From assembly GCA_017478105.1 (NCBI GenBank), contig JAFVEF010000037.1:5945-69944 (forward strand): a DNA stretch of 64,000 nucleotides. Direction: 5' to 3'. Positions within the stretch are counted from its first letter, which is position 1. Each line of letters begins with the position of its first letter. This document shows positions 2,250 to 54,755 of the stretch, in pieces. The notes under the pieces are model-generated. The model ran no database searches, had not been told where the DNA came from, and was given only the letters and a program-made list of their open reading frames with translations. A program made the translations under genes and the position numbers. The DNA comes from Bacilli bacterium (lineage in GTDB: Bacteria > Bacillota_I > Bacilli_A > RF39 > UBA660).

Positions 2250-2281
2250 AAAAAGAAAATGTATCAATCGATACATTTTTA

Positions 2282-3565: not shown

Positions 3566-3584
3566 ATAAAATAAATTCACCCCT

Positions 3585-5900: not shown

Positions 5901-5982
5901 AGTATGTACTCTCCTATTATATTAATAGTATCGTCTATATTTTTTTTGTCAATAATATCAATTACTTTAGATATTTAATTTA

Positions 5983-6014
5983 CAAAAAAAATAACTTTCT
6001 AATTTGAAAGTTAT
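5983..6014 (-). terminator. Rho-independent terminator after ftsZ
   Basis: On the minus strand: ATAACTTTC-AAATTA-GAAAGTTAT followed by T8, starting 14 nt after the ftsZ TAA. Confidence 0.7.
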
Positions 6015-6027
6015 TTTATTATTTATT

Positions 6028-7149
6028 TTAAAAATTACGATCTCTTAACCAAGATGGAACACTTAAGTCTTGATGATTATTTACAACAGGTTCTGCTGGT
6101 TTATCATCTAAAACTTCTGGTTGATATGAATAATCTTCTCTAGGTTGTCTTCTCACTGTATTTGTAGGATAACTCTCCTCTTCTTTTTCCTTTTTATTAG
6201 CCTTATCAAAACCAGTAGCAATTACTGTAACAATAACTTCATCACTTAAATTTTCATTGATAACAGAACCAAATATTGTATTAATATCAGTATTAGCAGC
6301 ACTTCTAACAACTTCAGCAGCTTGTTCTGCTTCAAATAAAGTTAAGTTAACTCCACCAGTAATATTAATAATAGCATCAGTAGCACCTTCAATAGATGTT
6401 TCAAGAAGTGGAGATGAAACAGCTTGTTTAGCAGCTTCTAAAGCTCTATCTTCTCCCATACCAATACCAATACCAATAATAGCACGTCCACTCTTCTCCA
6501 TTACAGCTTTAACATCAGCAAAGTCTAAGTTAACAAGTCCAACAACAGCAATTAAATCAGAAATAGATTGTACACCTCTACGTAATACATTATCAACTTC
6601 TTTAAATGCTTCAAGCATTGGAGTAGATTTATCAATTATTTCTCTTAATCTATCATTTGGAATAACAATTAATGTATCGACATGTTTCTTTAATTCTTCA
6701 ATACCTGCTAAAGCATTTTCCATTCTTCTTTTTCCTTCGAATGAAAATGGTTTAGTAACTATAGCAACTGTTAAAGCTCCAAGACCTTGTGCAATTTCAG
6801 CAACTATAGGAGCAGCACCAGTACCAGTACCTCCACCCATTCCACAAGTAATGAAAACCATATCAGCACCAGCCAAAGCTTCTTCAATTTCCTTTTTAGA
6901 TTCAACTGCTGATTCTTTACCTACTTCAGGTTTTCCTCCAGCACCTAATCCATCAGTTAAAGTTGCTCCAATTTGAATTTTAACATCAGCCTTACTCGTA
7001 TTTAATACTTGCAAATCAGTATTAGCAGCAATAAATTCTACGCCTTTAACTCCAGATTCAACCATTCTATTGACAGCGTTTCCACCACCGCCACCTAAAC
7101 CAATGACCTTTATTTTGGCCAATTGATCCATTTCTAATCCGCCTATCAT
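6028..7149 (-). CDS. ftsZ: Cell division protein FtsZ
   Basis: [10 protein letters not shown] and [10 protein letters not shown] tubulin signature. C-terminal tail is [20 protein letters not shown] lies 7 nt before the ATG. Confidence 0.97.
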
Positions 7150-11282: not shown

Positions 11283-12530
11283 TTAACCTAATCGGAAAGC
11301 GGGCGAAACACCAGTAACATCATAAGCATAAGTAAAGCTAAAACTACCACTGCCATTCACATAGGTAAAACCATTATTTGAAATAGCTGTGCGCAACCAC
11401 CAACTAGAACTTACCCCATTTTTCTGTTTAATAACAGATGAGTAGTTTGAGGGTGTTACGTTTAAATCAGCATAATAATCTAATTGTCTTGTTTGTCCCT
11501 GGGCTGTATCAGATTCTCCAGTATAATCCCATACTTCTCTTCTTGATAATAAATATAGTTTATCAGTTGATGTGAAGTTTGTTTCACCTGTAGTTGATCC
11601 ATGTCCTGATAGTACTGTTGTATCTATTATTCCATTCTTTAATTCTGTAGGTAGAGCATTATATATATCAGTATTTACATATGTTCTCATTTCACTTACT
11701 GGCCAGCCTCCTGCATTTGTACTTGTAGAATTCATATTATGAGTTGTGATTACATCGGCAAACTCTAATACAAAGCCACAAGCAGTTTGTGAAAACCCTT
11801 CTGTAGAACACTCTACTGGAGTTGAGGTGTTTGCTATTCTCAAAGTATGTGCTCCAAACTCACCCATATCTACCGTCTTAGTATCTCCGACATTATAAAC
11901 ACTTGTATTTCCTGATTTAACTGCACTAATAATTGTACTCCATGAATCAGTTGAAAAAGATTCTGGATGCCCTGGTTTTACGGCATTTTCATCTGCTTGA
12001 ACATAAGTTACTGAGAATGTTAGATTAAGTGTTTGCTCTGTACTTGGTAAATCATCTTTAGTTATGTCTTTTTTATAACCTACTCTTACTTTGTAGGTTT
12101 CTGTTTTACCTGCTTCTAATAAATGATTATTTTGAATGGCTATTCCATCACTATAAGTAACACTATATTCTAAGTAATTTGGAAGTGTTGTGATTTCAGT
12201 ACCATTTAGTTTACTGGATACTGCAAATATCATTCCATCAATAGTTCCGGCATTTTTCGCATCAACTGTGAACTCGAAATAATCTCCTGGTAAGTTTAAT
12301 GTAACACTGTATGATACTGTTGTTTTATTAGTATCAATCGCAGGAGTTGAGGCTGTTACACTACCAGTTCTTACTTGAACATTATCAAAATAAATATCCC
12401 ATTTATTATCTTTTACAACTGTTGTTCCTACTATATTTAAGTTTGTTGTAAGTAGTGCATAACCTAAACTTATGCTTAATAATAAAATAACTAATACTGT
12501 AAATAAATATCTTCTTTGCATATCCTTCAC
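11283..12530 (-). CDS. Surface protein: shared N-terminal module plus C-terminal DUF6273-like domain (paralog of 2282-3565)
   Basis: 415 aa. Anchor followed by SLGYALLTTNLNIVG. Blocks such as GFSQTACGFVLEFAD and PTELKNGIIDTTV are identical to the paralog. C-terminus is WWLRTA...GVSPAFRLG. Confidence 0.7.
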   Translation of the reverse strand: MKDMQRRYLFTVLVILLLSISLGYALLTTNLNIVGTTVVKDNKWDIYFDNVQVRTGSVTASTPAIDTNKTTVSYSVTLNLPGDYFEFTVDAKNAGTIDGMIFAVSSKLNGTEITTLPNYLEYSVTYSDGIAIQNNHLLEAGKTETYKVRVGYKKDITKDDLPSTEQTLNLTFSVTYVQADENAVKPGHPESFSTDSWSTIISAVKSGNTSVYNVGDTKTVDMGEFGAHTLRIANTSTPVECSTEGFSQTACGFVLEFADVITTHNMNSTSTNAGGWPVSEMRTYVNTDIYNALPTELKNGIIDTTVLSGHGSTTGETNFTSTDKLYLLSRREVWDYTGESDTAQGQTRQLDYYADLNVTPSNYSSVIKQKNGVSSSWWLRTAISNNGFTYVNGSGSFSFTYAYDVTGVSPAFRLG

Positions 12531-14778: not shown

Positions 14779-15648
14779 ATGAATGATAAAATCACAGCTA
14801 TCATGAATGTAAATGAAAATGAAATAAGGGTCATGAGAGTAAATGATGAAGATTATATTTCCTTAACTGACTTAGCACGATATAAAAATTCAGATAATCC
14901 AGGGGATGTTATTATTAAATGGATGAGTAACAAAAGCTCATTTGATTATTATTCTTTATGGGAAGAATTATTTAATGAAAATTTTAAACTGGCGGAATCC
15001 CGCGAGTTTAAAAATGACTCAGCAACCCAATCATTCACAATGAGCCCATCCAGATGGATAAATATAACGAATGCAATAGGTTTTATTAGTAAAAGAGGAA
15101 AGTATGATGGTGGTACATTTGCACATCCGGATATTGCATTAGAGTTTGCTTCTTGGATAGACCCCGCTTTTAAATTATATTTGATCAAAGAATTTGAAAG
15201 GTTAAAATACAATGAAAGTTATCAAAATGAAATAGAATGGTCAGTTAAAAGAATGCTTACTAAAACAAATTATAAAATACATACAGAGAGTATTAAGGAG
15301 AACATTGTTCCAAAGTTAACAGATAAGCAAAAACAATATATATACGCAGATGAAGCTGATGTGATAAATGTTGCATTATTTGGACAAACCGCAAAAGAAT
15401 GGAGAGATAATAATCCAAATTCAAAAGGTAATATAAGAGATTATACTGATACATTGCATTTAATAGTTTTAAGTAATTTAGAAGTCTTAAATGCTAACAT
15501 GATTGAAGATAATATAAAACAAAGCGAACGATTAATTAAACTCAATAATGTTGCAAAAAAAGAACTCAAAATATTAATTAACAACAAAAATATAATAGGA
15601 ATTAATAATTTAGACAATAAAAAGAATGTTTTAATTGAAAAAAAATAG
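14779..15648 (+). CDS. KilA-N domain-containing protein
   Basis: 289 aa. N-terminus (ISLTDLARYKNSDNPGDVIIKWMSNKSSFDYYSLWEELFN) is typical of KilA-N DNA-binding proteins. Isolated accessory gene between gmk and pyk. Confidence 0.6.
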   Translation: MNDKITAIMNVNENEIRVMRVNDEDYISLTDLARYKNSDNPGDVIIKWMSNKSSFDYYSLWEELFNENFKLAESREFKNDSATQSFTMSPSRWINITNAIGFISKRGKYDGGTFAHPDIALEFASWIDPAFKLYLIKEFERLKYNESYQNEIEWSVKRMLTKTNYKIHTESIKENIVPKLTDKQKQYIYADEADVINVALFGQTAKEWRDNNPNSKGNIRDYTDTLHLIVLSNLEVLNANMIEDNIKQSERLIKLNNVAKKELKILINNKNIIGINNLDNKKNVLIEKK

Positions 15649-20856: not shown

Positions 20857-20870
20857 GAAACATTTGTTTG
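20857..20870. promoter_or_regulatory. LexA box 2 (weaker), overlapping the lexA -35
   Basis: GAAACATTTGTTTG keeps the AAC-N4-GTT core. It overlaps TTGACA at 20868-20873, which is spaced 17 nt from TAACAT at 20891-20896. Confidence 0.4.
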
Positions 20871-20918
20871 ACATTTTTACTACCATATGTTAACATATAT
20901 ATAGAAGGAGTTTTTTAT

Positions 20919-21536
20919 ATGGAAAAATTAACAAATAAACAAAGTGTTATTTTACAAGTATTAAAAAAATTAATTGCGAAAAACGGATATCCACCTACTG
21001 TTAGAGAAATTGGTGAAGAAGCACATTTATCTTCTCCTGCAACTATTCACTTTCACCTAACTAAACTAGAAGAAAAAGGATATATTAAAAAGAATGATAA
21101 TAAAAATAGAACTATAGAAATATTAGTACCAAATGAATATTTAGAAAAGGATGAAAATGTTGTTGAAGTTCCACTTCTTGGAAAAGTAACAGCTGGTTCT
21201 CCAATAGAAGCAATCGAAACACCAGATGAATATTTTGCTCTTCCTGCTAACTTAATAACTACTAAAAATGATGTTTTTACTTTAACTGTAAGTGGTGAAT
21301 CAATGATAAAAGTTGGAATCTATGATGGAGATATACTAATAGTCGAAAGAAGAAATACTGCTAAAAACGGTGAAACAGTAGTTGCTATGAATAACGACAA
21401 TGAAGTAACTGTTAAAACTTTTTATAAAGAAGATGGTTATTTTAGACTGCAACCAGAAAATGATACAATGAATCCAATCATTTTAAAAGAAGTAACTATT
21501 CTCGGAAAAGTTATTGGATTATATAGAAAATTATAA
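20919..21536 (+). CDS. lexA: LexA repressor
   Basis: MEKLTNKQSVILQVLKK... winged-helix N-terminus. VTAG/SP cleavage site. S24 peptidase SGESM plus Lys (VTVKTF). GAAGGAG RBS. The ORF-track start at 20868 is too early. Confidence 0.93.
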   Translation: MEKLTNKQSVILQVLKKLIAKNGYPPTVREIGEEAHLSSPATIHFHLTKLEEKGYIKKNDNKNRTIEILVPNEYLEKDENVVEVPLLGKVTAGSPIEAIETPDEYFALPANLITTKNDVFTLTVSGESMIKVGIYDGDILIVERRNTAKNGETVVAMNNDNEVTVKTFYKEDGYFRLQPENDTMNPIILKEVTILGKVIGLYRKL

Positions 21537-21625: not shown

Positions 21626-21931
21626 GTGTATTTTTTTATGGCTTCTAAAGGACAAAAATATAATAAATACACAAAAGAATTTAAAAATATGGTTATTAGT
21701 GAAAAGACTCAAGGAATATCATATAGTTATTTGTCCAAAAAATATAATATATCAGTTGGTACTTTAATGACTTGGTATCATAAATATAATCGACCTGATT
21801 TATATCCAAATCAAGGTCAAAAGAAAGGCCCAAAAAATGATAAAAATCTAACCAAAGAAGACTGGAAAGAAAGATATGAAATACTAAAAAAATACCAGGC
21901 CTTCCTCAAGGCACAACGAGAGAGAAAGTAA
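21626..21931 (+). CDS. IS3-family transposase OrfA (HTH)
   Basis: 101 aa (KYNISVGTLMTWYHKY). Contains A AAA AAA at 21886-21892 in the zero frame. Confidence 0.85.
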   Translation: MYFFMASKGQKYNKYTKEFKNMVISEKTQGISYSYLSKKYNISVGTLMTWYHKYNRPDLYPNQGQKKGPKNDKNLTKEDWKERYEILKKYQAFLKAQRERK

Positions 21932-22764
21932 CATTTATAAATTTATATAGAAATAATTATAAACTTACTAACATGTGTGCCGTACTTAATATAAGTCCTA
22001 AAACTTATTATAAATATAGAAGTAAGGAAGATCCTGATTATTATGATTATTTAATAATTAAAGAAGTATTTGATAATTCTAAAGGTACATATGGTTATCG
22101 TAGAATTGTGGAAGGCCTAAAAATCAAATATGGGGTTGTGATGAACGGAAAGAAGGTATTAAGAATAATGAAAAAATACAATTTAATGGCAGAATATATA
22201 AGAAAAGCCAAGATTAAACATAAAAACATTAGAATTGAAGATAACGTTAAACCAAATTTATTAAATAGAAATTTTAATACTAATAAGCTAAATCAAGTAT
22301 GGGATACAGATGTAACATATTTGATAATTAAAGGTTCAAGAGCTTATTTATCCACAATAATAGATTTGTATGATAGACATGTGGTTTCATATAAAATATC
22401 TAAACATAATGATAATAAACTAGTGATGGATACTTTGAATGATGCCTTAACAAAAGAAAAAGATGTACATGGACTAATCATTCATAGTGATCAAGGTTTC
22501 CAATATACATCTTATGAGTACAAAGCTATATGTGGATCAAATGGAATACAAATTTCTATGAGTAGAAAAGGTACTCCTATAGATGATTCACCAATAGAAA
22601 GCTGGCACGCTCTTCTAAAGAAAGAAACTTTGTACAATAATAATATTACATCTTTACAAGAATATATTCAACTTGTAGAAGAATGGATATTATTTTACAA
22701 TACAACTAGGTTAAAGTCAAAAGTTAAAAAAAAGAGAAAAACTTATACAAAAAGAGAAAAATAA
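21892..22764 (+). CDS. IS3-family transposase OrfB (DDE integrase domain), expressed as OrfAB by a -1 frameshift
   Basis: The -1 frame is open from the A7 site (..ILKK/IPGLPQGTTREKVTF..) into ORF-track 21973-22764. DDE region: WDTDVTYL, IHSDQGFQYTS, ESWHALLKKE. Confidence 0.85.
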   Translation: MPGLPQGTTREKVTFINLYRNNYKLTNMCAVLNISPKTYYKYRSKEDPDYYDYLIIKEVFDNSKGTYGYRRIVEGLKIKYGVVMNGKKVLRIMKKYNLMAEYIRKAKIKHKNIRIEDNVKPNLLNRNFNTNKLNQVWDTDVTYLIIKGSRAYLSTIIDLYDRHVVSYKISKHNDNKLVMDTLNDALTKEKDVHGLIIHSDQGFQYTSYEYKAICGSNGIQISMSRKGTPIDDSPIESWHALLKKETLYNNNITSLQEYIQLVEEWILFYNTTRLKSKVKKKRKTYTKREK

Positions 22765-24406: not shown

Positions 24407-26293
24407 TTAATTCCAAGGTTGACTCTTATATACTGTATTAGTTGGAGTATCTTTAGTAATAGCAGTAATCCCTACACTGTCTCCTTGTGCATACATTCTA
24501 TTTTTAAGTGGGATAGTGTTAGTTCCAATTCTCAAGTCTTTAGGTGTTACTAATTCAATAAGATCATAATAGCTAATATTGATAGCTAAAGAACCTGAAT
24601 TTTCAAAATTACTTAAATCTAATCCACTTAAATTTAATTTTTCTAAAGAAGCAACACTATCAAACACTCCATAAAATTTTGTAATTTCTACATTTGTAAT
24701 ATCAAAACTACTTAAATCTATTTCTTTTAATTTTGGAACATATTTAAACATATAATTCATATTGGTTACTTTACTTGTATCAAAGCTGCTTAGGTCTAAT
24801 TCTTCAATTTCATTATTTAATCCAAAATAAAACATATAACTCATATCTGTAACATCAGATGTATCAACATTTTTTAAGTTAATTTTTTTAAGGTTTGGAA
24901 CTGCATTAAACAAATTGGAACAATCACTGGGTAATTTAGCATTTTCTAAGCTTAGATACTTTACTGTTTCATTTGGCACTCTATCAAACATATTATATAA
25001 CAATTGACTCTTTTCATAATTTGAAAAATCAAGATTATCTAATATTAAAGTTTCTAAAGATGTCATGTCTTCAAAAATAGAATCGAAAGAACTTGAGCTT
25101 ACTTTAGAAACATTAAAATTGCTTAAATCCAATTCTTTCAAATTAATTAAATACGTAAACATATGACTCATATCAGTGACATTGCTTGTATCAAAGCTAC
25201 TTAAATCTAGCTCAGTTATTTCACTAGCACCATTAAACATATTACTCATATTGGTAACATTTTTAGTATTATAATTTTTTAAATTTATATCTGTCAACAT
25301 TATATTCCCTTGAAACATTGACCTCATATTAGTAACATTTGATGTATCAAAATTGCTTAAATCTAAAGAAGATACTTTACTATAAGTAAACATAGATCCC
25401 ATATCTGTAACTTTAGAGGTATCAAAGGATGAGAAATCTAAACTAGTTACATTTGAATTTGCAAACATACCACTCATATCAACAACATTTTCTGTATTAA
25501 AACTACTTAAATCAATACTTGTCGCATTACTAGATGCAAAAGTACCTGACATACTAACTATCGGTTGACCATTTATTGATGTACATAACTTAGTAGTTAC
25601 TGGATCAGTTGAACTTCTGTCTTTTAATCCAACCTGCCAACCATTTAAACTACTGTTATATGAATATCCATATTGACCATTTTCATAACTAGTTGCACTT
25701 TCTGAAGTACAAGGATTAACTATACCATCAGACTGAACATAGCCTAACGTTACATTTATATTAAATGATTTATCTTCACCTGGATAATTACTTGTATCAG
25801 CATTTTCTAAATATTTAAACGATACTTTTATTGTTCGGGTTCTACCTGCAAGTAAAACATCATCTACTTTTACTGGAAAGCCGCTATCATAATTTAATTC
25901 ATAATTAAAATACTTGGCATCATCTTCAGATAATTCTGGTTGCATAACAATACTACCAATTTGTGCATCTATTGTTCCAAAGTTTACTACATCAATATAA
26001 AACTCATACTTATCTCCTGGATTTTCCAATTGAGCAGAAAAACTAACTGTAGTTAATTCTGATATTGCAGGAGCTGTAGTAGGAGTAACACTTCCTTCTA
26101 CTGGTTGAATATTATCAAAGTGAACATTCCATTCATTATCTTTTAACTTAGTAACTCCAACAATTGATAAATCTGTCCTTAAATATGCATATCCTAAACC
26201 TAGAGCTACACATACTAAAACAAATAAAGGTAATAAGAATCTTGTTTTATAATTATATTTAAACTTTTTAACAAATCTTCTTTTAAACTTCAT
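24407..26293 (-). CDS. BspA/DUF285-type leucine-rich-repeat surface protein with the shared N-terminal module
   Basis: 628 aa. Anchor followed by GLGYAYLRTDLSIVG, then NEWNVHFDNIQPVEGSVTPT...GTIDAQI. About 12 repeats of the type DLSSFDTSNVTDMSHMF. Confidence 0.8.
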   Translation of the reverse strand: MKFKRRFVKKFKYNYKTRFLLPLFVLVCVALGLGYAYLRTDLSIVGVTKLKDNEWNVHFDNIQPVEGSVTPTTAPAISELTTVSFSAQLENPGDKYEFYIDVVNFGTIDAQIGSIVMQPELSEDDAKYFNYELNYDSGFPVKVDDVLLAGRTRTIKVSFKYLENADTSNYPGEDKSFNINVTLGYVQSDGIVNPCTSESATSYENGQYGYSYNSSLNGWQVGLKDRSSTDPVTTKLCTSINGQPIVSMSGTFASSNATSIDLSSFNTENVVDMSGMFANSNVTSLDFSSFDTSKVTDMGSMFTYSKVSSLDLSNFDTSNVTNMRSMFQGNIMLTDINLKNYNTKNVTNMSNMFNGASEITELDLSSFDTSNVTDMSHMFTYLINLKELDLSNFNVSKVSSSSFDSIFEDMTSLETLILDNLDFSNYEKSQLLYNMFDRVPNETVKYLSLENAKLPSDCSNLFNAVPNLKKINLKNVDTSDVTDMSYMFYFGLNNEIEELDLSSFDTSKVTNMNYMFKYVPKLKEIDLSSFDITNVEITKFYGVFDSVASLEKLNLSGLDLSNFENSGSLAINISYYDLIELVTPKDLRIGTNTIPLKNRMYAQGDSVGITAITKDTPTNTVYKSQPWN

Positions 26294-26346: not shown

Positions 26347-26528
26347 AAAAAAAAGTCAAGATAGATCGTCGTCGGCCAACGATAAAACCTAATCTTCTGA
26401 TCAGGTGGGTGTTCATACGCTATCATTAGGATCCTTAAACTAGTAAGTATTCAACACCGATAGCTGTTCCGAACTCCCGTATCGTTATTTTAGTCGGTTT
26501 TATATGTGCCTGTTCGAATCTATCTGAC
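26347..26528 (-). ncRNA. ssrS: Candidate 6S RNA (ssrS/bsrA-like), about 182 nt
   Basis: GC-enriched island. Promoter TTGTCG (26564-26559), 18 nt, TATAAT (26540-26535). Predicted rod: closing stem GUCAGAUAGAU.../...AUCUAUCUUGAC plus AUAAAACC/GGUUUUAU; roughly 17+17-nt central bubble; inner helices GGGAGUUC/GAACACCC and GCUAUC/GAUAGC. Ends in U8. Lies in the aspS-tcdA interval, where B. subtilis 6S-1 maps. Confidence 0.6.
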
Positions 26529-26615
26529 AACTTTATTATACTATACTATAAATATTTTCGACAAGTCCTTTAACACTATTTTACAACTAATCATACAATA
26601 CTCTAGGTGATTACT

Positions 26616-37494: not shown

Positions 37495-37752
37495 TCAAAA
37501 AGTATTCTTCTTATTTTCTAAATAAGATATAATATCATTTTCATTTATATTCATAATATCATCAACTATATCACATAAGTATAAATTATGACTATTTATC
37601 CACTTATTTTCAATTAAACAATTCCAAATATCATTACTACTAACAGTAATACCTTTCTTTTTAAAATCATTTTCTCTTATGAACAAACAATACTTTACTC
37701 TCTGATATAGTTCCTCTTTATTAGAAAACATATCATTCATAAAAGAATACAC
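37495..37752 (-). CDS. Small conserved protein, possibly ComN/YrzD-like post-transcriptional regulator
   Basis: 85 aa, directly upstream of secDF as yrzD is in B. subtilis. Assignment rests on position and size only. Confidence 0.3.
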   Translation of the reverse strand: MYSFMNDMFSNKEELYQRVKYCLFIRENDFKKKGITVSSNDIWNCLIENKWINSHNLYLCDIVDDIMNINENDIISYLENKKNTF

Positions 37753-38724: not shown

Positions 38725-39063
38725 TTATTTATTTACTTCATAATTACAATTAGTTATAGAATTAACTAAAAAATCATCTAAATCAACCTCATAGCAAATA
38801 TCAGTATTTTTCTCTCTAAATAAGAATTTATTATTATCTTTTTTCAATAAAACATAATCATCACCAGTTTTATGAGTCTGCCCCAATACTAAATATAAAG
38901 CTTTATTTTCTTCACCTTTTATATTATCAATTGAAACATTTTCAGAATATTCATCTACATTATCAATATACTCATTTTTATCTTTACTAGTGTTAGATTC
39001 ATTAAATAATATAAACAAAACAATACCAACAATTATTATTATAAAAGCAATAACAATCATCAT
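38725..39063 (-). CDS. Small single-pass membrane protein (hypothetical)
   Basis: The ORF-track N-terminus overlaps the pilin-like gene. The start used here is ATG 39063 (MMIVIAFIIIIVGIVLFILF...) but is uncertain. The stop lies 1 nt before the xerC ATG. Confidence 0.45.
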   Translation of the reverse strand: MMIVIAFIIIIVGIVLFILFNESNTSKDKNEYIDNVDEYSENVSIDNIKGEENKALYLVLGQTHKTGDDYVLLKKDNNKFLFREKNTDICYEVDLDDFLVNSITNCNYEVNK

Positions 39064-39082
39064 TAAACTAATTTTTTTTATT

Positions 39083-42000
39083 TTACCATTCACTTTCACA
39101 TCCACGCCCCTTTTCGCAAATACCAGAACCTTTAAACTTGAATTTTTCGTCTTCAGAAGAGTGGTCATTTTTCTTATAAATATAATATGTTCCACTATAA
39201 ATCATAGATCCATCTGGATACCAACGATTATATTCCAGATTTTTAGGATCAGTAAGATCTAAAGCAGAATTTTTAAAATAGAACCATTTTCCTCTATAAG
39301 TGTCATAATTACCACTACTATCAGGTAAATTTGCACACCAACCTGTTGCCATAAAGTACTTTTTACCATAACACCTAGTTTTACCTGCAGTCTCATTACC
39401 AGTATAGAAATAATACCAGTGATAGTCACCTTTACTAGATACATCTGTTATTGAATTAAACCAGTATAATTTTTTCCAATTTGTAAGGAAAGAACCTTGA
39501 TAATAATATCGCCAATCACCTCTAAAACTATTAAGATCAACTGGTCTACCATCCTTAAATTCAGAATAGATTCCTTCATATACATTTTCACTTGAATGAG
39601 GTGATAATACCCAACCATTACCTAACTTAAAACTAACAGGATATGATAGAGTTTTTCCATCACTAGCAGTTCCCATTGCTGTACAATTGACATCCACAAC
39701 ATATAAGTCAGTGGTATCCAACTTACTAGTAAATCTATATCCAATAACTGAAGAACCATTTTTAATTTCTGATTTAGTATATTTATTTTGTCCAAAACTT
39801 GTGTCATTATCTATGATTCCAGCACCTTTAGATAAATTACAAGTAATAGTAACATTAGTGCAATTAGTAGCATTATATTTTACTTCTGCTGGCCCCACAT
39901 AAACTCCTGGGATCTCCTCCCCAAAACCTGAAGAATTCTTAATAAATGAAGAACCTGTAGTTCCAGAAACAGAAACACTAAGACTAGAATTACCTACCCA
40001 ATTGGCATACAACGTTATTTCACAATTACCATTACTTGAATCACATAAATCAGTTCCTTTATATACCTTTGTTTGACTATAAGTACCTCCGCCCCCATCA
40101 TTCCAAGCTTTTTCAAGATTAATCGTAAATCCGCTTCTTGAAATATTAATTAACGAATGATTATCTACATTATATAAACCATTTTGATCATAATAAGTTC
40201 CATATGGTATTTTATCCAAATAAATATCACCATTTCTTCTAAAAAAGCCATCACTACCAACAGTAATACTACTACCATGAGGATCTATTAATACTCCACC
40301 ATTTATATGATATTTTACTAATGACAAATTAACAGTCCACATTGCATATAAAGTAACAGAACAACTTTTCGAAGAAGCATCACAAAAATCACTAGCTGAA
40401 TAAACTGATGACTGATTAAATGTTTTACCAGTTCCATCTGCTTTTGTATTCCATACATTATCACCATCTATATGGTAATGACTCTTAACAATATTAATTG
40501 CATCCTTATTATTATAATTATACAATCCATCATTACTTAAAGTTTCACCATAAGGGACTTTATGAAAATCATCTTTTCCGTTATAAGTAATATTACCAGA
40601 AGAATCAACACTTACTCCAGGACCAACTTGATTAGCCAAATTACCACCATTTAAATTATATTTAATAGTTACAGAATTTGCTTTTCTCCATTCTGCTCTA
40701 ACCTTTATATTGGATTTTGCAACTGTGTTTTCATCTACTATATCACCAGATGAAGTTTTCCAATTAACAAAAGCATAATTTGTACGTGTAGGAACACATA
40801 AACTTCCCCAGTAAGCAGTCTTGCCTTCATCAAAATGAACTTTTTTAGTCTTGCTACTACATCCACTTCCACCATTATCATCATAAGATAATTTATATTC
40901 ACTAGCAACTTTATAATCAAAATCTTTTGTCTTATAGTTACCAGCTAAATCAGAAACAGTAACATAAACTTTATGAATATTATTATCATAACTATCACTT
41001 ATTTTTAAATCTTCATCTAAATAATTAATCTCTTTATCTCGTAAATCTATATAATTACTATAAGTTAAATAACTATTATTTTTTTTAGCACATTTATCTT
41101 CATCAATTGAAAAACACATTTTAATTTGTGATGAATTTGACTTGTCATCAACAACATCAAGTACAAATTTAGGTACTAAATTATTATATAATTTATTTTT
41201 TTCAGATGTTATTAATGTAGATGATTCACTAAAATCAGGAGCAACATTATCAACACTAAATGGTCCAGAAGAAATATAATTAATATCTGAATTAACAGCA
41301 TTTACCCATGGATTCATAAAAATATCATTTAATCGATCAATTCTAACAAATAAATAATACTGACCAGTAACCCCTGCTGGTGTAGTAATATCATCTGAAT
41401 TAACAATAATATTACCTTCCTTCATATCATTTTTTTGTTTTTCAATTGTTGGAACAGACTTAAAATTAACATGTTTCCAACTATCACTACTTATTGAATT
41501 GTAATCATTATTTAAACTCCAAGCATATGACAAACCTATATCTGGATTGATACCAAAAGAACTGCTTAATTTTATATTAGCCGTACGCTTCTTTTTATTA
41601 AATAATTCTGAAGTAGTACCAACAATTTTAACATCAATTGAACTTTTATCATTACCAGTACAAGATACATCACTTGAAGGATATTTATAACTAATTTCCC
41701 CGTTTTTATCTTCTAATATTTTATTCTTATCTGCACCGCAACCCAATACACCAGTATAATAATATTGACCATCAAGTTTTAAAATTCTAACTTTAGAATA
41801 ATCACTATTACAAGAAATATTACTAATCTTAATGTCTTTTAATAGCTTAGCCTCGTTTAATGTTTGAAAAGATACTCTTGCACAACCATTTTCATTTTTA
41901 CCAAATAAATCTTCTGAGTACGAATCATTATACAATTTAGCACTAGCAATCATAGAATCCATATATGTTTTATATTGTCTTTCATTACGACTATTACTTA

Positions 42001-42094
42001 ATGTTCTAAGTAAAGGAATAGATAATCCAGAAATAATTCCTAATATTACAATAGCAACTAATAATTCAACTAATGTAAAACCTTTTTTATTCAT
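39083..42094 (-). CDS. Giant modular type IV pilin-like protein (prepilin N-terminus, Listeria/Bacteroides-repeat domains, aromatic CWB-like C-terminal repeats)
   Basis: ATG 42094 behind GAAGGTGAT. MNKKG/FTLVELLVAIVILGIISG is a class III signal (G-1, F+1, E+5). Then a Cys-paired pilin head. Three domains of the type ..GW/NW...G....V.L.A.W. C-terminus has GDWRYYY, YHWYYFYTG, ATGW and GKWFYF. Confidence 0.8.
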   Translation of the reverse strand: MNKKGFTLVELLVAIVILGIISGLSIPLLRTLSNSRNERQYKTYMDSMIASAKLYNDSYSEDLFGKNENGCARVSFQTLNEAKLLKDIKISNISCNSDYSKVRILKLDGQYYYTGVLGCGADKNKILEDKNGEISYKYPSSDVSCTGNDKSSIDVKIVGTTSELFNKKKRTANIKLSSSFGINPDIGLSYAWSLNNDYNSISSDSWKHVNFKSVPTIEKQKNDMKEGNIIVNSDDITTPAGVTGQYYLFVRIDRLNDIFMNPWVNAVNSDINYISSGPFSVDNVAPDFSESSTLITSEKNKLYNNLVPKFVLDVVDDKSNSSQIKMCFSIDEDKCAKKNNSYLTYSNYIDLRDKEINYLDEDLKISDSYDNNIHKVYVTVSDLAGNYKTKDFDYKVASEYKLSYDDNGGSGCSSKTKKVHFDEGKTAYWGSLCVPTRTNYAFVNWKTSSGDIVDENTVAKSNIKVRAEWRKANSVTIKYNLNGGNLANQVGPGVSVDSSGNITYNGKDDFHKVPYGETLSNDGLYNYNNKDAINIVKSHYHIDGDNVWNTKADGTGKTFNQSSVYSASDFCDASSKSCSVTLYAMWTVNLSLVKYHINGGVLIDPHGSSITVGSDGFFRRNGDIYLDKIPYGTYYDQNGLYNVDNHSLINISRSGFTINLEKAWNDGGGGTYSQTKVYKGTDLCDSSNGNCEITLYANWVGNSSLSVSVSGTTGSSFIKNSSGFGEEIPGVYVGPAEVKYNATNCTNVTITCNLSKGAGIIDNDTSFGQNKYTKSEIKNGSSVIGYRFTSKLDTTDLYVVDVNCTAMGTASDGKTLSYPVSFKLGNGWVLSPHSSENVYEGIYSEFKDGRPVDLNSFRGDWRYYYQGSFLTNWKKLYWFNSITDVSSKGDYHWYYFYTGNETAGKTRCYGKKYFMATGWCANLPDSSGNYDTYRGKWFYFKNSALDLTDPKNLEYNRWYPDGSMIYSGTYYIYKKNDHSSEDEKFKFKGSGICEKGRGCESEW

Positions 42095-42142
42095 ATTATC
42101 ACCTTCTATTATTATTTTAAAAGAAGTAATAAAATAAGTCAA
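42095..42142 (-). promoter_or_regulatory. Promoter of the pilin-like gene
   Basis: On the minus strand: TTGACT (42142-42137), 17 nt, TAAAAT. The -35 abuts the T11 run of the upstream terminator. Confidence 0.5.
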
Positions 42143-42170
42143 AAAAAAAAAGAAAGAAATGTTATTTCTT
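42141..42170 (-). terminator. Terminator of the 241-aa ORF gene (overlaps its stop codon)
   Basis: On the minus strand: AAAGAAAT-AAC-ATTTCTTT followed by T11. Confidence 0.65.
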
Positions 42171-42842
42171 TACATTAGTTTTATCCATATCAAATAAATT
42201 ACTAGAATATAATTTATAATTATCATCACATTTTTCAATTATCTCAGATGAACATTTTCCTCTCTCATCAATTATTGAAAGATAAGAAGTATAATTATTC
42301 AAATACTTATCAAATATATCATAACTAGATAATATATTTCTTAAAACATGATAACTATCTCTAGCCCATCCACCATCTGCATATTTTATATTATTAATAT
42401 ATTTAAATCTTCCTTCAATAAAATAATTAACAAATTTATCATATAAATTAGTTTTTTTATACATAACTAGTGAATAAAAAGCAGAATCACTTTTCATTCT
42501 AACACAAAAATTATCAATAATAGAATCATTAATTACATAATCTGCTTTTTTATCAAGAGATAATTCTGCTACATCTCTAATTTTTTCTCTATTCTTAAAC
42601 AACGGTTCTTGAAAATACAATCCCTTTTTAGATTCATTACAAATAAAAACATCATAATCAATATCATCAATATAATTATCTAGATATAATTTTTTTAATA
42701 ACTCTTCACTAGATTCAAAATTAGTTGTATATAAATCTATATTTTCTAATCTTGACTTTATCCCCTTTATAAAAGATATATTAACTATCTCATTTTTTTT
42801 ATTATTTCTTCCAATTAAATAGTATTTATTTCTAAAACTCAT
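42162..42842 (-). CDS. Hypothetical protein (226 aa)
   Basis: ATG 42842 (MSFRNKYYLIG) lies behind AAGGGGGA. No recognisable motif. Sits between topA and the pilin-like gene. Confidence 0.5.
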   Translation of the reverse strand: MSFRNKYYLIGRNNKKNEIVNISFIKGIKSRLENIDLYTTNFESSEELLKKLYLDNYIDDIDYDVFICNESKKGLYFQEPLFKNREKIRDVAELSLDKKADYVINDSIIDNFCVRMKSDSAFYSLVMYKKTNLYDKFVNYFIEGRFKYINNIKYADGGWARDSYHVLRNILSSYDIFDKYLNNYTSYLSIIDERGKCSSEIIEKCDDNYKLYSSNLFDMDKTNVKK

Positions 42843-42905
42843 ATATATCCCCCTTAACAAGTCCATATTATACCACAAAAAAAGCAAATTTAAAAGTATT
42901 TGCTT

Positions 42906-49721: not shown

Positions 49722-50570
49722 TTATTTTTCTATTAATTTATCTTCATCTATATATCGGTAGTTTAAAGAATTGTCTTTAGAAATTGCATTTAATCCTGTA
49801 ACTTCTTCATAAAACTCTTTTGTTTTCTTCGCAACACTACCACCCTTTTTAGCAACTTTTCTATTTTCAGAAAGGCCAATTGGTTTTTCTCTTTGAGCGA
49901 TATGTCTTGTCGTTAGTTCTCCCAAATCTGTCAATGCAACTTCAATATCAGTCATATTGTCTCTTAAATTTTCCTTATGAATACCTTTATATGATTTATA
50001 CTCTTGGGCATTCATTCCTGACCATTCTTTATAGATCTCATTTGTTAAAATACCATATTCAAAGTCTTTTGTAATTCCTCCATCTTTCCAAATATCAGTT
50101 AATTTATTTCTATCTAGTGTTGCTTTTATTCTAGCTTCAATCCATTTATCATCATATCCTTTTTTTCTATAATAGTCTATCGCTCTCTTAATAGCTTTTT
50201 CAGGATCAAATACTTCATCTATTCTTTCGCTACCTAACTGAGCTAACCATAATTTAAATGGTTCAGCTTTGGGAGAAGGAACTGATTCAATCAATCTTAG
50301 AATACCTTTCGTATCAAGTGTATCTGTTTCTCTCATTTTTCCATCTTTAGCTTTTAATTTCAACTGCACGATTTTTTCGTGCACTTCACTCCCTTCATCA
50401 ATTAACTTTCTTTTTAAGTCACTCCAGTAGTTTCTTGGAATATTAGCATCAGTTAATGCAGCTATTACATCTACGACACTAAAGTAATAATCTTCTTTTT
50501 CAGAATCCCAGATGCTTCTAATTTCTTTTCCTTCAAATAGATTTGTAATTGTAGATAATTTATTATTCAT
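49722..50570 (-). CDS. BRO-N domain-containing protein
   Basis: 282 aa. N-terminus FEGKEIRSIWDSEKEDYYFSVVDVIAALTD...LDTKGILRLIESVPSPKAEPFKLWLA is typical of the Bro-N fold. Confidence 0.65.
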   Translation of the reverse strand: MNNKLSTITNLFEGKEIRSIWDSEKEDYYFSVVDVIAALTDANIPRNYWSDLKRKLIDEGSEVHEKIVQLKLKAKDGKMRETDTLDTKGILRLIESVPSPKAEPFKLWLAQLGSERIDEVFDPEKAIKRAIDYYRKKGYDDKWIEARIKATLDRNKLTDIWKDGGITKDFEYGILTNEIYKEWSGMNAQEYKSYKGIHKENLRDNMTDIEVALTDLGELTTRHIAQREKPIGLSENRKVAKKGGSVAKKTKEFYEEVTGLNAISKDNSLNYRYIDEDKLIEK

Positions 50571-50856
50571 TTAATTCCCCCTAACAATAATTTTTCATCT
50601 AATAATATTATACTATATTATTTATAATATCAAACGTTTTTTCGGTATAAAAATATATAATATAAAAAATTAAAATAAGGGGAGGTTCACAGTACAATCT
50701 CACTACTCAACTTCTACCAAAAAATGCATATTTTTTTATTAGTAAACCATAAAAAAAACACTTTTTAGTGAATTTTTTGCAAAAAAAGTGTAAGATCTAA
50801 ATATTAAAAATTTCGTTGAAAAATAAAGAAATCATATAAGGGGTCCACAAAAACAA

Positions 50857-50904
50857 TTACAACCAATTGATTGCGGTATTATTAAGACTTTTTTCGTTTT
50901 TCAT
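50857..50904 (-). repeat. Diverged decoy of the rbgA 5' end (MKNEKSLNNTAINWL*)
   Basis: 15-codon ORF whose N..NT.INW mirrors rbgA MDNKTNINW. Begins 1 nt after the stop of the VOC pseudogene. Confidence 0.45.
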
Positions 50905-50905
50905 T

Positions 50906-51255
50906 CTAATCACTTCCTTTAGCTTTAGTTGTTAATTCTATATGATTTCCTTCACTATCAATAAATTCAACTACATAATTATTATCTATTTTTGTTAAAG
51001 GAAAACAAATCTCTAGCTTTTCTATTTTTCTTTTTAGTGTTTCTATACTATCTACTTCTATACTTGGCAAACAATTACTTCCAAAGGTATGATGCTCATT
51101 CATTTTTTGATATGCAAATCAAATCTAAAACCATCAACATCAAATACAGAATAAATAGAATCATTTTTTATAGGACTTTTTTCAAAAAAACTTGTATAAA
51201 AATTGATAGCTCTTTCCATATCATTAACACAAATATACAATGACTTTATTTTCAC
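50906..51255 (-). pseudogene. VOC (glyoxalase/bleomycin-resistance) family gene, frameshifted
   Basis: GTG 51255 gives VKIKSLYICVNDMERAINFYTSFFEK...GFRFDLHIKK*. The sequence continues in another frame as MNEHHTFGSN... The break is at an A6 run (about 51104-51109 on the plus-strand T-run); A7 would restore the frame. Confidence 0.65.
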
Positions 51256-51272
51256 TAACGTATCATCTCCAA

Positions 51273-52274
51273 TTAATTATTATTCTCTTCTAAATATTTA
51301 TTGTAAAACTCATCCATTGAAGAAATATATTTTTGATCTTGTATTACTCTATATTTCTCATATTCATTTTCTGCTTTTTCAATCGCTTCTTTATGTGAAA
51401 CATTGCCAGAATTATCTAGCAATTTTTTTCTTCTAAATTTTAATAAATCATCGGTTGCATTTATCCAATCCTGCATAGTCATAACATGTCTTTCTTTGGC
51501 CTCGTCTTCTGCAAATACTAAAAATATATTTGTTAAATCATTTAGCTTAGAAAGTTCTTCTTCATTCAAATAATTTTTAGCAACACTTACATCATATTTA
51601 TATATTAATCCATCAGGAGAATTTTTCCAATTAGTTAAGCCCATATGTTCTTTTTTTGAATCAGCTCTACTATATATTAATTCTGCTGCAGTATGTCCAC
51701 TAATTGCATAATGAAGCTTATTTTGTACTATTTTAAAGAATGTATATGCTTCTTCTGACTTCGAATTGTAGTCAGTTGAAGTTACAATAAATAAATCTGT
51801 TATCTTTTGATAAGACATTCTTTCACTTACACGAATTGTCTTAATTCTTTCAAGTAGTTCATCAAAGTATTTTGTATCATACTTATTTCCTCTAATGAAT
51901 CTTTCATCATTTAAAGCAAAGCCTTTTTGAATATATTCTTTTAATACTTTGGTAGCCCATATTCTAAAATCAGTAGCTTTTTTTGAATTAACTCTATATC
52001 CAACAGCGATAATAGCATCTAAGTTATATATTTTTGTTTTATAGTTTTTACCATCAGAAGCAGTTACCGAGGAATCCTCGGTAACTGAAGTTTCATCAAG
52101 TTCTTTGTCTTTAAAAATGTTTTTTAGATGTAAAGAAATATTATCAGTACTACAATCAAAAACTTTTGACATTCCTTTTTGTGTAAGCCATAAAGTTTCA
52201 TCTTTGTATATTGCATCAACAATAATATCACCATCACTATTTTTATATATCAATAAATTATTAGATTCATTCAT
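51273..52274 (-). CDS. RhuM-family protein
   Basis: 333 aa. LIYKNSDGDIIVDAIYKDETLWLTQKGMSKVFD..., IIAVGYRVNSKKATDFRIWATKVLKEYIQKGF, then a Fic/DOC-adjacent style C-terminus. Confidence 0.7.
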   Translation of the reverse strand: MNESNNLLIYKNSDGDIIVDAIYKDETLWLTQKGMSKVFDCSTDNISLHLKNIFKDKELDETSVTEDSSVTASDGKNYKTKIYNLDAIIAVGYRVNSKKATDFRIWATKVLKEYIQKGFALNDERFIRGNKYDTKYFDELLERIKTIRVSERMSYQKITDLFIVTSTDYNSKSEEAYTFFKIVQNKLHYAISGHTAAELIYSRADSKKEHMGLTNWKNSPDGLIYKYDVSVAKNYLNEEELSKLNDLTNIFLVFAEDEAKERHVMTMQDWINATDDLLKFRRKKLLDNSGNVSHKEAIEKAENEYEKYRVIQDQKYISSMDEFYNKYLEENNN

Positions 52275-52312
52275 ATTACACCATCCTTTCTATTGGTCTT
52301 GACTAGCTGTTC

Positions 52313-52410
52313 TCACCATATCAATTCCTAAGCAATTTTTACTTATAATTACCATATTACCACTATTTTTCATCAATTTTAGTAAATTATATTCTAAAAC
52401 ATGCAATATC
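52313..52410 (-). repeat. Conserved promoter/leader module, copy 2 (upstream of RhuM; more diverged)
   Basis: On the minus strand: ATTGCATGTTTTAGA...TAAAAT...GGAATTGATATGGTGA. Shares its ends with the modules at 54005-54121 and 49591-49703. Confidence 0.45.
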
Positions 52411-52457
52411 TATTTTAACTTTTCCTTTTTATTACAAGGATTTGGGAGTAGTCTTGA

Positions 52458-52505
52458 CTAAATTGTTATTAACCAGTTTATATTAGTTTTATTTTCACTA
52501 TTCAT
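52458..52505 (-). repeat. Decoy of the rbgA 5' end (MNSENKTNINWLITI*)
   Basis: Contains the 23-nt core aaccagtttatattagttttatt (52471-52493), identical to rbgA 48638-48660. Confidence 0.75.
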
Positions 52506-53491
52506 TTGGATCAACTCCTTTATCAGGCAATGATTTCATTAATAAATCAAAATCGCTTTGTAGTTCTTTCATTTCTCTTTCTCTATATATTTGAAATTCT
52601 TTTTCGGCTTTTTTTATTGTTTCTTCATGAGATACTTTACCATTACCTTCAAGTATTTTTCTTCTATTTAATAATATTTGATTATCAAGTTCTGCAACCC
52701 AATCATTCATTTTCATTGTTCTTTGTTCCAAAGCTTGTAATTCTGCAAAGTCCAAGAATTGAGATACTAATAAATTTAATCTTTGAAGTTCAATTTCTGA
52801 TAAATAATTTTTTGCTATTTTAACATCATCTATTGTTACATAATTACCTTTAAAATTAGTCATTCCAATATATGGTTTTTCGTTATCTACTCTGTTATAT
52901 ATTAATTCTGCTGCGGTTTGTTCGTGTACTGCATAATGTAATTTATTTTGAACAGTAGCAAAGAATTTTTTTGTTATTTCACTTCTAGGGTCATAATCTA
53001 CTTGTTGCATAAATATCAGTTACTTGTTGATAAAAATTCCTTTCACTAGAACGAATATCTCTTATTCTTTGAAGTAATTCCTTAAAATATCTATTACCAC
53101 CAAGACTCAATCTATTATCGTCCATAGTAAAACCTTTTTGTATATATTCATGTAATCTTTGTGTAGCCCAAATTCTAAATCTTACAGCTATATCAGATTG
53201 AACTCTATATCCTAAGGCAATTATCATATCCAAATTGTAATGGTCTATACTTCTTTTAACTTCCCTGTTACCTTCTTTTTGAACTTGCAAGAATTTCTTG
53301 CAAGTTGATTTAGGTAGTTCATTATCGTTATAAATATTATTAATATGTTGTTCTATATTCTGCCTTGTAGTTTTATAAATATCAGCAAGTTGATATTTTG
53401 TTAACCAAACATCCTCATCAATAAATTTAACATCTACGCAAGTTTTGCCATCTTTATCTTCATATATTAATACTTCATTTTTATTATCCAT
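52498..53491 (-). pseudogene. Second RhuM-family gene, frameshifted
   Basis: ORFs 52991-53491 and 52498-53010 are the N-terminal and C-terminal halves of a RhuM homologue in different frames. The break is at ...DIYATS/VDYDPRS, around 52995-53005. Confidence 0.75.
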
Positions 53492-53508
53492 AATTGCCTC
53501 CTTTACTA

Positions 53509-53958
53509 TTATTCAATATCATTTCTTCTTACAAAATCATTATATACCCAATCAGGTGCGTAATCTAAAACATATGATAATTCATCAATTAATTCTTTTT
53601 TAGTCATTGAACTAATATACTTTCGTGTTTTATTATATAACTTTTCTTGATAATCTTCATATTCTTCTTGCAATCTTTCTTGTTCTTCTTCAAAGTTTTT
53701 TGCTTCTTTTGGAAATGCAGTAAAGAATGTTGCTACTATATGCTTACATATTATTCTTTTTCCATTTGCTAATGGACAAGTACAAGTGGATTTTCTAGGG
53801 TGTGATACATCTAAATAAACGTTATAATTATTAGTACCAATTACTGTACTTGTATATTCATAATCATTTATTTTTTTCAAATTTATTATTTTATTTTTTT
53901 TATAATAATCTAATCCTCGCCAACATGAAGCACCACTAGCTGATGAAATTACACTCAT
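53509..53958 (-). CDS. SWIM zinc-finger domain protein
   Basis: 149 aa. CTCPLANGKRIICKHIVA matches CxC-Xn-CxH. Confidence 0.65.
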   Translation of the reverse strand: MSVISSASGASCWRGLDYYKKNKIINLKKINDYEYTSTVIGTNNYNVYLDVSHPRKSTCTCPLANGKRIICKHIVATFFTAFPKEAKNFEEEQERLQEEYEDYQEKLYNKTRKYISSMTKKELIDELSYVLDYAPDWVYNDFVRRNDIE

Positions 53959-54353: not shown

Positions 54354-54755
54354 TTATACGTTTTCATCAAACACTGCTGTTAATTCAGTAGCCCCACTTA
54401 CAGTTATTTCTAATTCGGAATCAGTTGAATAATCCTTATTATCTTTAGTCCATTTTACAAATTTATAACCAGCATCAGCCTTACAATTAATTTTAACATT
54501 CTCTGCCTTATCAAGTTTTACATAAACTTGTTGATTTGGCCTTTCATCATTAAAATCTATTTTTCTCGCATCATCAATGTAGTATGAAACTTGTCCTAAC
54601 CCTTCAGTTTCTAATAATAAATAAATATCCCCTTTACTATCAATTACCTCTTCACTCTTATTATCTTGTTTATTATTTCTACAACCAGCCAAAACAAATA
54701 AAGAAACAAATAGCACTAAAACAACAAATAGATTAGATATTTTTTTCATATACAA
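54354..54755 (-). CDS. Lipoprotein (hypothetical)
   Basis: 133 aa. Signal peptide with lipobox LFVLAG/C. Confidence 0.7.
   Translation of the reverse strand: MYMKKISNLFVVLVLFVSLFVLAGCRNNKQDNKSEEVIDSKGDIYLLLETEGLGQVSYYIDDARKIDFNDERPNQQVYVKLDKAENVKINCKADAGYKFVKWTKDNKDYSTDSELEITVSGATELTAVFDENV

Follow-up and report, generated by a model that had tools for sequence, protein, structure and literature searches.

Modular pilins are the current explanation for the functional versatility of simple type IV filaments, where they act as adhesins (PMC8179133). Only two small examples, PilB and PilC of Streptococcus sanguinis, have been tested experimentally. Each consists of a class III signal and a small N-terminal pilin module followed by a C-terminal graft (a von Willebrand factor A domain in PilB, a lectin in PilC), in a monoderm host without a secretin and with a predicted role in adhesion (PMC8179133, PMC10191384). 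Here we analyse a gene that appears to take this scheme considerably further. It lies on the minus strand (39083..42094) of a 64,000-nucleotide stretch from a Bacilli bacterium (assembly GCA_017478105.1, contig JAFVEF010000037.1, positions 5,945 to 69,944; hereafter the window) and encodes a 1,003-residue protein that we read, with a probability of roughly 0.55, as a modular minor pilin: processed by a prepilin peptidase, docked in a type IV filament and bearing a stalk that presents an exchangeable binding cassette. PilB and PilC are its closest known counterparts, functionally and architecturally, and it resembles them in signal, N-terminal module, grafted C-terminal domains, probable monoderm host and predicted role. 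They are, however, about half its size and have a single graft apiece, their genes lie in the pil locus together with the machinery, and both have been shown experimentally in pili, whereas the giant pilin, as we will call it, has seven downstream domains, an unlinked gene and several paralogues per genome, and its properties are predicted from sequence.

The architecture as such is not new. Dataset S1 of Raynaud et al. 2021 contains the IPR012902-IPR013378 combination, with nine proteins carrying two repeats; the file has 20 occurrences of IPR013378 (PMC8179133). These entries, catalogue rows without characterisation, share the giant pilin's combination of domain types but differ from it in length (1,003 residues, with family members of up to 1,653) and in the conserved 400-residue core and C-terminal cassette, neither of which has a signature. 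An original prediction made from the window had described known modular pilins as far smaller; the protein does exceed the largest mentioned in the 2021 survey, at 860 residues (PMC8179133), but an example of that size and a catalogued protein class of the same build take the edge off the claim. CofB of enterotoxigenic Escherichia coli and TcpB of Vibrio cholerae likewise place beta-repeat or beta-sandwich domains that standard tools do not detect behind a pilin module, and are located at the pilus tip, where they mediate interactions (PMC8179133). Unlike the giant pilin, with which they share no sequence similarity beyond the first helix (alpha1), they are components of the type IVb systems of diderms, and their genes sit within the pilus operon. 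Both are some 420-520 residues long. A parallel of another kind is the bindosome of Sulfolobus, made of large archaeal sugar-binding proteins that have class III signals, do not form filaments and are encoded away from the peptidase gene; these are solute-binding proteins and not homologous to the giant pilin, which has a full globular head besides the signal. Literature searches on RFN20/RF39 pili, and on Listeria-Bacteroides repeats combined with pilins, returned nothing specific to the family. The novelty lies in degree and organisation, namely in the size, the conserved 400-residue core, the paralogues with swapped display ends and the rare cassette. No principle is changed. The family would nevertheless extend the modular pilin concept to subunits two to three times larger, with several paralogues per genome and an assembly end separate from swappable display ends, in Bacilli of the gut and rumen that are abundant but uncultured and have a little-understood surface biology.

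The case for a pilin begins at the N-terminus. The sequence MNKKG/FTLVELLVAIVILGIISGLSIP (the slash marks the predicted cleavage site) is a class III signal, a short leader ending in Gly and followed by a hydrophobic stretch. Cleavage of the leader (residues 1-5, 42080..42094; this and all following coordinates of the gene and its domains are on the minus strand) is predicted to occur after Gly5 and would yield the mature N-terminal peptide (Me)FTLVELLVAIVILGIISGLSIPLLR, with Glu at mature position +5 (MNKKG/FTLVELLVAIVILGIISG; E10 of the precursor). A prepilin signal with Glu at this position had been proposed originally, and curated motif models agree: N_methyl (PF07963) scores 32.7 bits against a cut-off of 21.2 and TIGR02532 scores 29 bits against 16.3, the latter model being passed by 25 of 25 family members tested. 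The pilin module proper (residues 6-148, 41651..42079) comprises the mature Phe1 and Glu5, the alpha1 helix, a four-stranded sheet and four conserved cysteines. In a full-length AlphaFold model, built from 111 homologues and confident over residues 1-600, a 57-residue alpha1 helix (residues 8-64), packed on a beta-sheet, precedes strands at residues 70-75, 101-107, 110-120 and 136-138, a predicted pilin topology, and the predicted local distance difference test score (pLDDT) is about 80-94 across most of the module. The cysteines of the head, singled out in the original prediction, are at least 90% conserved (C71, C95, C119 and C145). When a family profile of residues 1-150 was compared to PDB sequences it matched 21 chains, all of them type IV pilins or pseudopilins and all within alpha1; the match to S. 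sanguinis PilE1 takes in its full alpha1 (residues 1-51). Motif models, PDB profile matches, predicted topology and the conservation of Gly or Ala at -1 and of Glu5 thus support the assignment of the N-terminus as a type IV pilin-like module. We also considered whether the protein is one of the Com pilins and rejected this identity, given its scores against the respective models (ComGE 26.7 vs 49, ComGF 22 vs 80, ComGC 18 vs 75, ComGD 12.7 vs 70) and the fact that the gene stands alone.

The protein is no orphan, as had first been thought. Among 8,000 candidates scored from a large protein database there are at least 231 homologues at E<=1e-3, found in metagenome-assembled genomes (MAGs) of uncultured gut Bacilli; most are 560-1,653 residues long and carry PF07963 together with PF09479, the longest being P0075 with 1,653 residues. 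Five contigs, each assembled independently, carry this very protein in an identical gene neighbourhood, and its NCBI record is MBR1936835.1, 'MAG: type II secretion system protein [Bacilli bacterium]'. When genomes were scanned, one for each GTDB species, at least 23 loci were recovered in about 14 MAGs from human, rumen, goat and sheep gut, whose labels are uncultured Bacilli, Bacillales, Erysipelotrichaceae or 'Mollicutes'; some genomes contain several copies, with a minimum of four loci in CAMZHD01, three in UBA3789 and two in three others. The scan relied on a core alignment without alpha1 and the repeats and on a single peptide pattern, so that these counts are lower bounds.

Two features of the family bear directly on assembly. 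First, although homologues share only about 30-40% identity, Gly(-1), Phe1, Thr2, Leu3 and Glu5 are nearly invariant. The original prediction would have been refuted by homologues that consistently lacked the G/FTLxE motif, and this condition fails: about 115 of 120 homologues have it, and two more have Ala at -1; prepilin peptidases cleave after either Gly or Ala (PMC10191384). Second, conservation is concentrated at one end of the protein. Residues 1-286 are common to all homologues, and most also share residues 1 to about 420 and the first repeat, with distal modules varying between extra Flg_new units, glycine-rich domains, TSP1-like Cys repeats, ChW and others. The sharpest example comes from a sister strain, whose contig L034 has 92% DNA identity to the left edge of the window and a 99% identical arginase. 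Between yqeH and mraZ, by synteny about 6 kb beyond the left end of the window, this contig carries a paralogue (P0003) that is identical to the window protein at 143 of 148 positions in the pilin module and 134 of 140 in the adjoining domain D2 (96-97% across residues 1-288), but at only 43 of 109 in the following domain D3, and whose C-terminus is unrelated. Judging from this alignment, the two proteins are a conserved assembly end joined to different display ends. A contig that does carry the exact window protein (L038, ena:ERZ27256838:k141_873438) ends about 7 kb left of arginase, just before the position of P0003 in L034; the near-identical 5' 860 nt of the paralogues may have caused the break.

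What of the machinery that a pilin would need? The original prediction had found none within 20 kb, and this extends to the whole window, where Pfam scans detected no T2SSE, T2SSF or Peptidase_A24 domain in any open reading frame (ORF) of at least 90 residues. We attach little weight to this local absence because in relatives a conserved PilB/ComGA-type ATPase is likewise encoded at a distance, tens of kb away from the giant pilins. On one related contig (L024), a T2SSE ATPase (PF00437, 388 bits) is located 5 kb from a family member. Its best NCBIfam models are GspE and PilB, it scores 270 against the ComGA cut-off of 300, and it is without an N-terminal GSPII domain; a strict PilB motif scan (PROSITE PS00662, Walker A GPTGSGKTT) had missed it, and a looser rescan found the ATPase in L024 only. 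Adjoining it are two minor-pilin-like ORFs with the signals G/FVLAE and G/VTTIE, the latter weakly ComGE-like. The ATPase is 83-92% identical across many MAGs labelled Bacilli and 'Mollicutes', and on a 183,762-bp contig (NODE_48) it lies at about 66 kb while giant pilin P0095 lies at about 115 kb, 49 kb away, with comEA and comEC 7-9 kb from P0095. Another family member, P0005, has two ordinary-sized N_methyl pilins at a distance of 8 kb. Relatives therefore have pilus machinery, of which the ATPase and minor pilins are seen, unlinked to their giant pilin genes. Scattered pilus genes are normal in type IVa systems (PMC10191384), and giant pilins themselves occur singly among housekeeping genes at differing places: between topA and xerC in the window, ftsZ and arginase (P0083, L015, L020), RNB/ThrRS and DnaG (P0095, P0005), thyA and rnhB (P0100), or yqeH and mraZ (P0003).

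Some further observations on these genes can be added here. The lineage ATPase (L024 2795-4864, minus strand; L028 10001-11722; P0133-P0252) has a long, variable Asn/Gln-rich C-terminal tail; its gene adjoins tmk and diverges from the two minor-pilin-like genes, with no platform or peptidase gene as a neighbour. The ComGE-like minor pilin of L024 (5603-6277; G/VTTIEVL…SAYNDRRIIE) recurs in P0118/P0119, where this N-terminus is fused to Flg_new repeats and Ig-like domains in an 818-residue protein, a second kind of modular pilin. The window itself shares with Bacillus a Post_transc_reg gene (PF13797, ComN/YrzD-like; 37495-37752, minus strand) placed upstream of secDF, here a fused gene, which together with comEA/comEC in a relative (L030) hints that the lineage retains competence functions.

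Behind the pilin module the protein is predicted to continue as a string of beta-domains. D2 (residues 149-288, 41231..41650) is an all-beta, family-specific sandwich (pLDDT about 85-95) that is common to every homologue and has no Pfam or PDB sequence match. D3 (residues 289-397, 40904..41230) is a predicted immunoglobulin (Ig)-like sandwich with a weak Pfam Big_13 match (E=0.009), ending in a conserved D-x-A-G-N motif with nearly invariant D382, A384 and N386. Beyond alpha1 the core has no PDB sequence relatives, a profile of residues 33-400 having matched none. There follows a Listeria-Bacteroides (InlB B-repeat/Flg_new; TIGR02543, PF09479) domain at residues 398-472 (40679..40903; pLDDT about 83-94), then two 114-residue Flg_new-like repeats (residues 473-586 and 587-700, 39995..40678) that end in …TLYAMW and …TLYANW; the full-length model shows a longer repeat from about residue 474 to 597. 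The original prediction of Listeria/Bacteroides-type repeats holds in part. The two long units are indeed repeats of one another, with 46 of 114 residues identical (40%), and the 114-residue unit occurs many times in three homologues (P0005, P0007, P0008), but the Flg_new model of Pfam fails to pick them up (E=8.8), and the first repeat (residues 400-471) is borderline, clearing TIGR02543 by 0.05 bits (21.0 vs 20.95) and missing the Pfam gathering score of PF09479 by 1.7 bits (25.3 vs 27). Most homologues do carry PF09479 above threshold. An Ig-like sandwich with an invariant Cys pair (C752, C804) comes next (residues 701-827, 39614..39994). A second AlphaFold model, of residues 701-1003, could be built once further relatives of this part had been identified (pLDDT 85, predicted template modelling score 0.84). 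It resolves this sandwich, which in fold searches is matched best by Ig V-type domains (E=5.8e-3), and a hairpin-rich terminal module behind it. On these models, the part between pilin module and cassette would be a beads-on-a-string stalk of two family-specific beta-sandwiches, three Listeria-Bacteroides-type repeats and one Ig-like domain. With N_methyl, a borderline Listeria-Bacteroides repeat and predicted Ig-like domains in one chain, the protein falls within the definition of a modular pilin given by Raynaud et al. 2021, which asks for an N-terminal IPR012902 motif and one or more further domains not specific to pilus biology.

Small beta-domains of this type serve as spacers or stalks in other Firmicutes surface proteins, those with Listeria InlB B-repeats or Flg_new domains, as they would in the giant pilin. 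The InlB-type proteins, however, have Sec signals and LPXTG, GW or lipoprotein anchors, in contrast to the pilin module and the divergent 114-residue repeat variant found here. A predicted 133-residue lipoprotein in the window (54354-54755, minus strand), with a Cys after its signal sequence and a single Flg_new_2 domain, shows, if the prediction is right, that this genome uses Flg_new-type repeats on other anchors too.

The last module is a rare cassette rich in aromatic residues and cysteines (residues 828-1003, 39086..39613; GNGW … DWRYYY … WYYFYTGNE … CYG … ATGWC … GSGICEKGRGC). An exhaustive HMMER search with the last ~300 residues of the window protein retrieved 11 cluster representatives among 1.84 billion, in whose alignment GNGW, WYYFY-G-E, C…GWC and SG-C…GC are invariant. 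Five of the 11 have prepilin N-termini of other types and two have an N-terminal motif, 'IGY-L…NL-I-G', that also occurs in DUF285 and DUF6273 proteins of the window. Fold searches with the C-terminal model (residues 701-1003) against the PDB and a viral library gave nothing significant beyond Ig-like domains, and no significant match for the cassette.

How might these parts work together? In the modular minor pilin that we favour, a prepilin peptidase encoded elsewhere in the genome would cleave after Gly5, and the mature alpha1 helix, with Phe1 and Glu5, would let residues 6-148 dock into a pilus-like or Com-like type IV filament assembled by the conserved, unlinked PilB/ComGA-type ATPase of the lineage. 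The stalk would then project the cassette off the cell and the protein would act as an adhesin, probably for a glycan or a cell-surface polymer. Judging from the labels of related MAGs (uncultured Bacilli), the organism is likely monoderm, and without an outer membrane there would be no secretin to limit subunit size. With a common assembly end but differing display ends, the several paralogues of a genome could provide an adhesin repertoire on one filament system. We consider this reading the most likely one because Gly(-1), Phe1 and Glu5 are conserved at such low overall identity, because a pilin head with conserved cysteines goes along with near-identical residues 1-288 in paralogues, and because the lineage has a conserved assembly ATPase, minor pilins and DNA-uptake genes. 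An adhesin character is suggested by the predicted multi-Ig array, which resembles surface adhesins, and by a cassette rich in conserved cysteines and aromatics.

A number of points weigh against this reading. A subunit with an 850-residue appendage that keeps Glu5 is hard to place within a filament, as the usual tip-capping subunit lacks Glu5 (PMC10191384), and a rigid multi-domain stalk of such size is hard to pack in the filament body. The genes are always solitary among housekeeping genes. The cassette is also found behind a different N-terminal anchor motif, as if the anchor were interchangeable. No A24 peptidase or T2SSF platform turned up in about 500 kb of window and related loci, although this search, which included GxGDxK regular-expression scans, is weak negative evidence only. 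A Foldseek search of the PDB with the whole model is dominated by generic multi-Ig arrays, that is, strings of Ig- and fibronectin type III-like domains as in SpyCEP, complement C3, UafA, invasin and PitA, and does not isolate the pilin head. Finally, cleavage, incorporation into a filament and adhesion are all read from sequence and predicted structure.

The alternative that survives best would retain the pilin signal as an anchor only. Imagine that a prepilin peptidase inserts the class III signal and processes it but the protein never polymerises, in analogy to the Sulfolobus bindosome: staying in the cytoplasmic membrane by the N-terminal part of alpha1, it would span the wall with its ~850-residue stalk and display the cassette beyond. 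The packing problem, the solitary genes and the alternative anchor of the cassette all speak for this scenario, as does the fact that the window's other surface proteins are all N-terminally anchored. Pure anchoring, however, would not need Glu5, which is required for subunit docking in filaments and not for cleavage (PMC10191384), and yet Glu5 is kept in about 95% of homologues. A 150-residue globular head with disulfide-forming cysteines, and the near-identity of residues 1-288, also point to a constrained assembly interface rather than a mere tether. We regard anchoring alone as a serious possibility, if an unlikely one.

A different challenge concerns the far end of the stalk, where the cassette might be a choline- or cell-wall-binding domain that ties the protein to the cell's own wall. 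The original prediction saw a resemblance to such repeats, and the cassette consensus W-YY--G---TGW … WYYFY-G … GWC-N-G---GW-YF does recall CW_binding_1 hairpins, as it does the aromatic GW…WYY hairpin-like C-terminal motifs of LytA, CbpA and the combined repetitive oligopeptides of clostridial toxins. Choline_bind_1 matches one of 13 relatives (E=0.007), and by hhalign one degenerate repeat unit aligns to the LytA choline-binding domain over 19 columns at 92% probability, with a LytA sequence entered by hand. The likeness stops there. The window protein itself matches no choline-binding Pfam model even at E<=10, choline-binding structures are absent among the best 50 fold matches listed in both fold searches, a tandem array was not detected, and the cassette has conserved Cys pairs that choline-binding domains lack. 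Choline sites require several consecutive hairpins, as in LytA and CbpF, and here about one unit aligns. If the tip were tethered to the wall, moreover, a long stalk would be pointless. A wall-binding role is thus weakly supported at best, and we think it improbable.

If, on the other hand, the prepilin-like N-terminus were vestigial, the giant pilin would be an ordinary signal-anchored or secreted surface protein, Sec-inserted and touched by no peptidase. Peptidase and platform genes were not found in any sequence examined, and organisms with reduced genomes may have lost the machinery. Under this scenario, however, we would expect the motif to drift, which is the opposite of what Gly(-1) to Glu5 show across the family, and we would not expect a highly conserved T2SSE ATPase and minor-pilin-like genes to persist in the lineage. 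A vestigial signal therefore strikes us as very improbable. A type II secretion pseudopilin, as the NCBI name would have it, is most unlikely: the match to the GspG model is weak and confined to alpha1 (23.4 vs 88.85, with GspH at 17.6 vs 80 and GspI at 14.3 vs 44.35), the scanned ORFs of the window include no type II secretion or secretin gene and the envelope is probably monoderm. The name, a generic carry-over from the shared N-terminal motif, is a misleading Prokaryotic Genome Annotation Pipeline (PGAP) label for the family.

Returning to the modular minor pilin, a broader and more speculative extension, one that we would bet against at present, is a lineage-specific display system in gut Bacilli with reduced genomes. 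One type IV filament apparatus, highly conserved and minimal, would serve a whole repertoire of giant pilins encoded across the genome. Their assembly ends (residues 1-288) would stay near-identical, while recombination would swap their display ends, including with those of surface proteins of the 'IGY-L…NL-I-G' type. If true, adhesin cassettes would be swapped on pilins rather than on sortase substrates, and the system would comprise the largest pilin-type proteins described, at up to ~1,650 residues. The genomic slots of the family deserve mention in this context. In the window, L034 and L038, the ftsZ-arginase slot (1344-7149 in the window) contains a DUF6273 gene and two DUF285 (PARCEL-repeat) genes, and comparison with L002, L015 and L020 shows a giant pilin there in three related genomes. 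It appears that surface-protein genes can replace one another in the intergenic gaps that separate housekeeping operons.

The 'IGY-L…NL-I-G' type itself is represented in the window by four DUF6273/DUF285 (PARCEL-repeat) proteins (2282-3580, 4548-5900, 11283-12530 and 24407-26293, all on the minus strand) and elsewhere by P0123 and P0131. They share an N-terminal membrane segment followed by a motif of roughly S(I/L)GYA(I/L)L(S/T)xNLxIxG, for which a search of Pfam and NCBIfam found no model. Because proteins with this N-terminus elsewhere carry the giant pilin's rare cassette, we suggest that it may act as another signal for surface anchoring or secretion, one not described before.

Turning to the gene itself, the ORF at 39083..42142 originally predicted is confirmed, but the ATG at 42094, also used in the gene calls of relatives, is the sensible start and gives 1,003 residues, compared to 16 more from the listed TTG; the stop codon occupies 39083-39085. 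A ribosome-binding site, GAAGGTGA as read from the sequence (42099..42106), stands 4 nt ahead of the ATG, and some 20 nt further upstream is the sigma-70-like match TTGACT-17-TAAAAT (42114..42142; 10 of 12 positions). The element named as promoter in the original prediction is therefore present and well placed. Such matches are no more frequent in this 26% G+C region than in shuffles, however (42 observed vs 36.4 +/- 6.1), which leaves it a plausible but unproven promoter of the pilin gene.

The gene order was correctly described from the outset as topA, an unknown ORF, the pilin gene, a small membrane ORF and a xerC-like gene. The upstream ORF (42162..42887, minus strand; 226-241 residues) has no domain match in Pfam and NCBIfam scans and is conserved in same-species contigs only. 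The downstream ORF (38725..39093, minus strand) encodes a single-pass membrane protein of 122 residues, overlaps the 3' end of the pilin gene by 11 nt, with which it is probably co-transcribed, and is conserved among the closest relatives only. As both flanking ORFs are confined to same-species contigs, we rule them out as conserved partners of the giant pilin.

The remainder of the window contains a few other features. No tRNA gene was found in its 64 kb. A 6S (SsrS) RNA gene lies at 26350-26532 on the minus strand (Rfam RF00013, 48.9 bits vs a gathering score of 46.4), and a pair of ORFs of an IS3-family transposase (HTH_Tnp_1 and rve integrase; 21626-22764, plus strand) sits just downstream of lexA (20868-21536). 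Phage or mobile-element remnants, comprising Bro-N, RhuM, a SWIM zinc-finger ORF and a KilA-N ORF, are located at 49722-53958 and 14779-15648; one RhuM is intact (51273-52274), and a second, split between 52498-53010 and 52991-53491, is probably a frameshifted pseudogene. In a relative (L001), two serine recombinases and a DUF6870 protein adjoin rbgA instead of these remnants.

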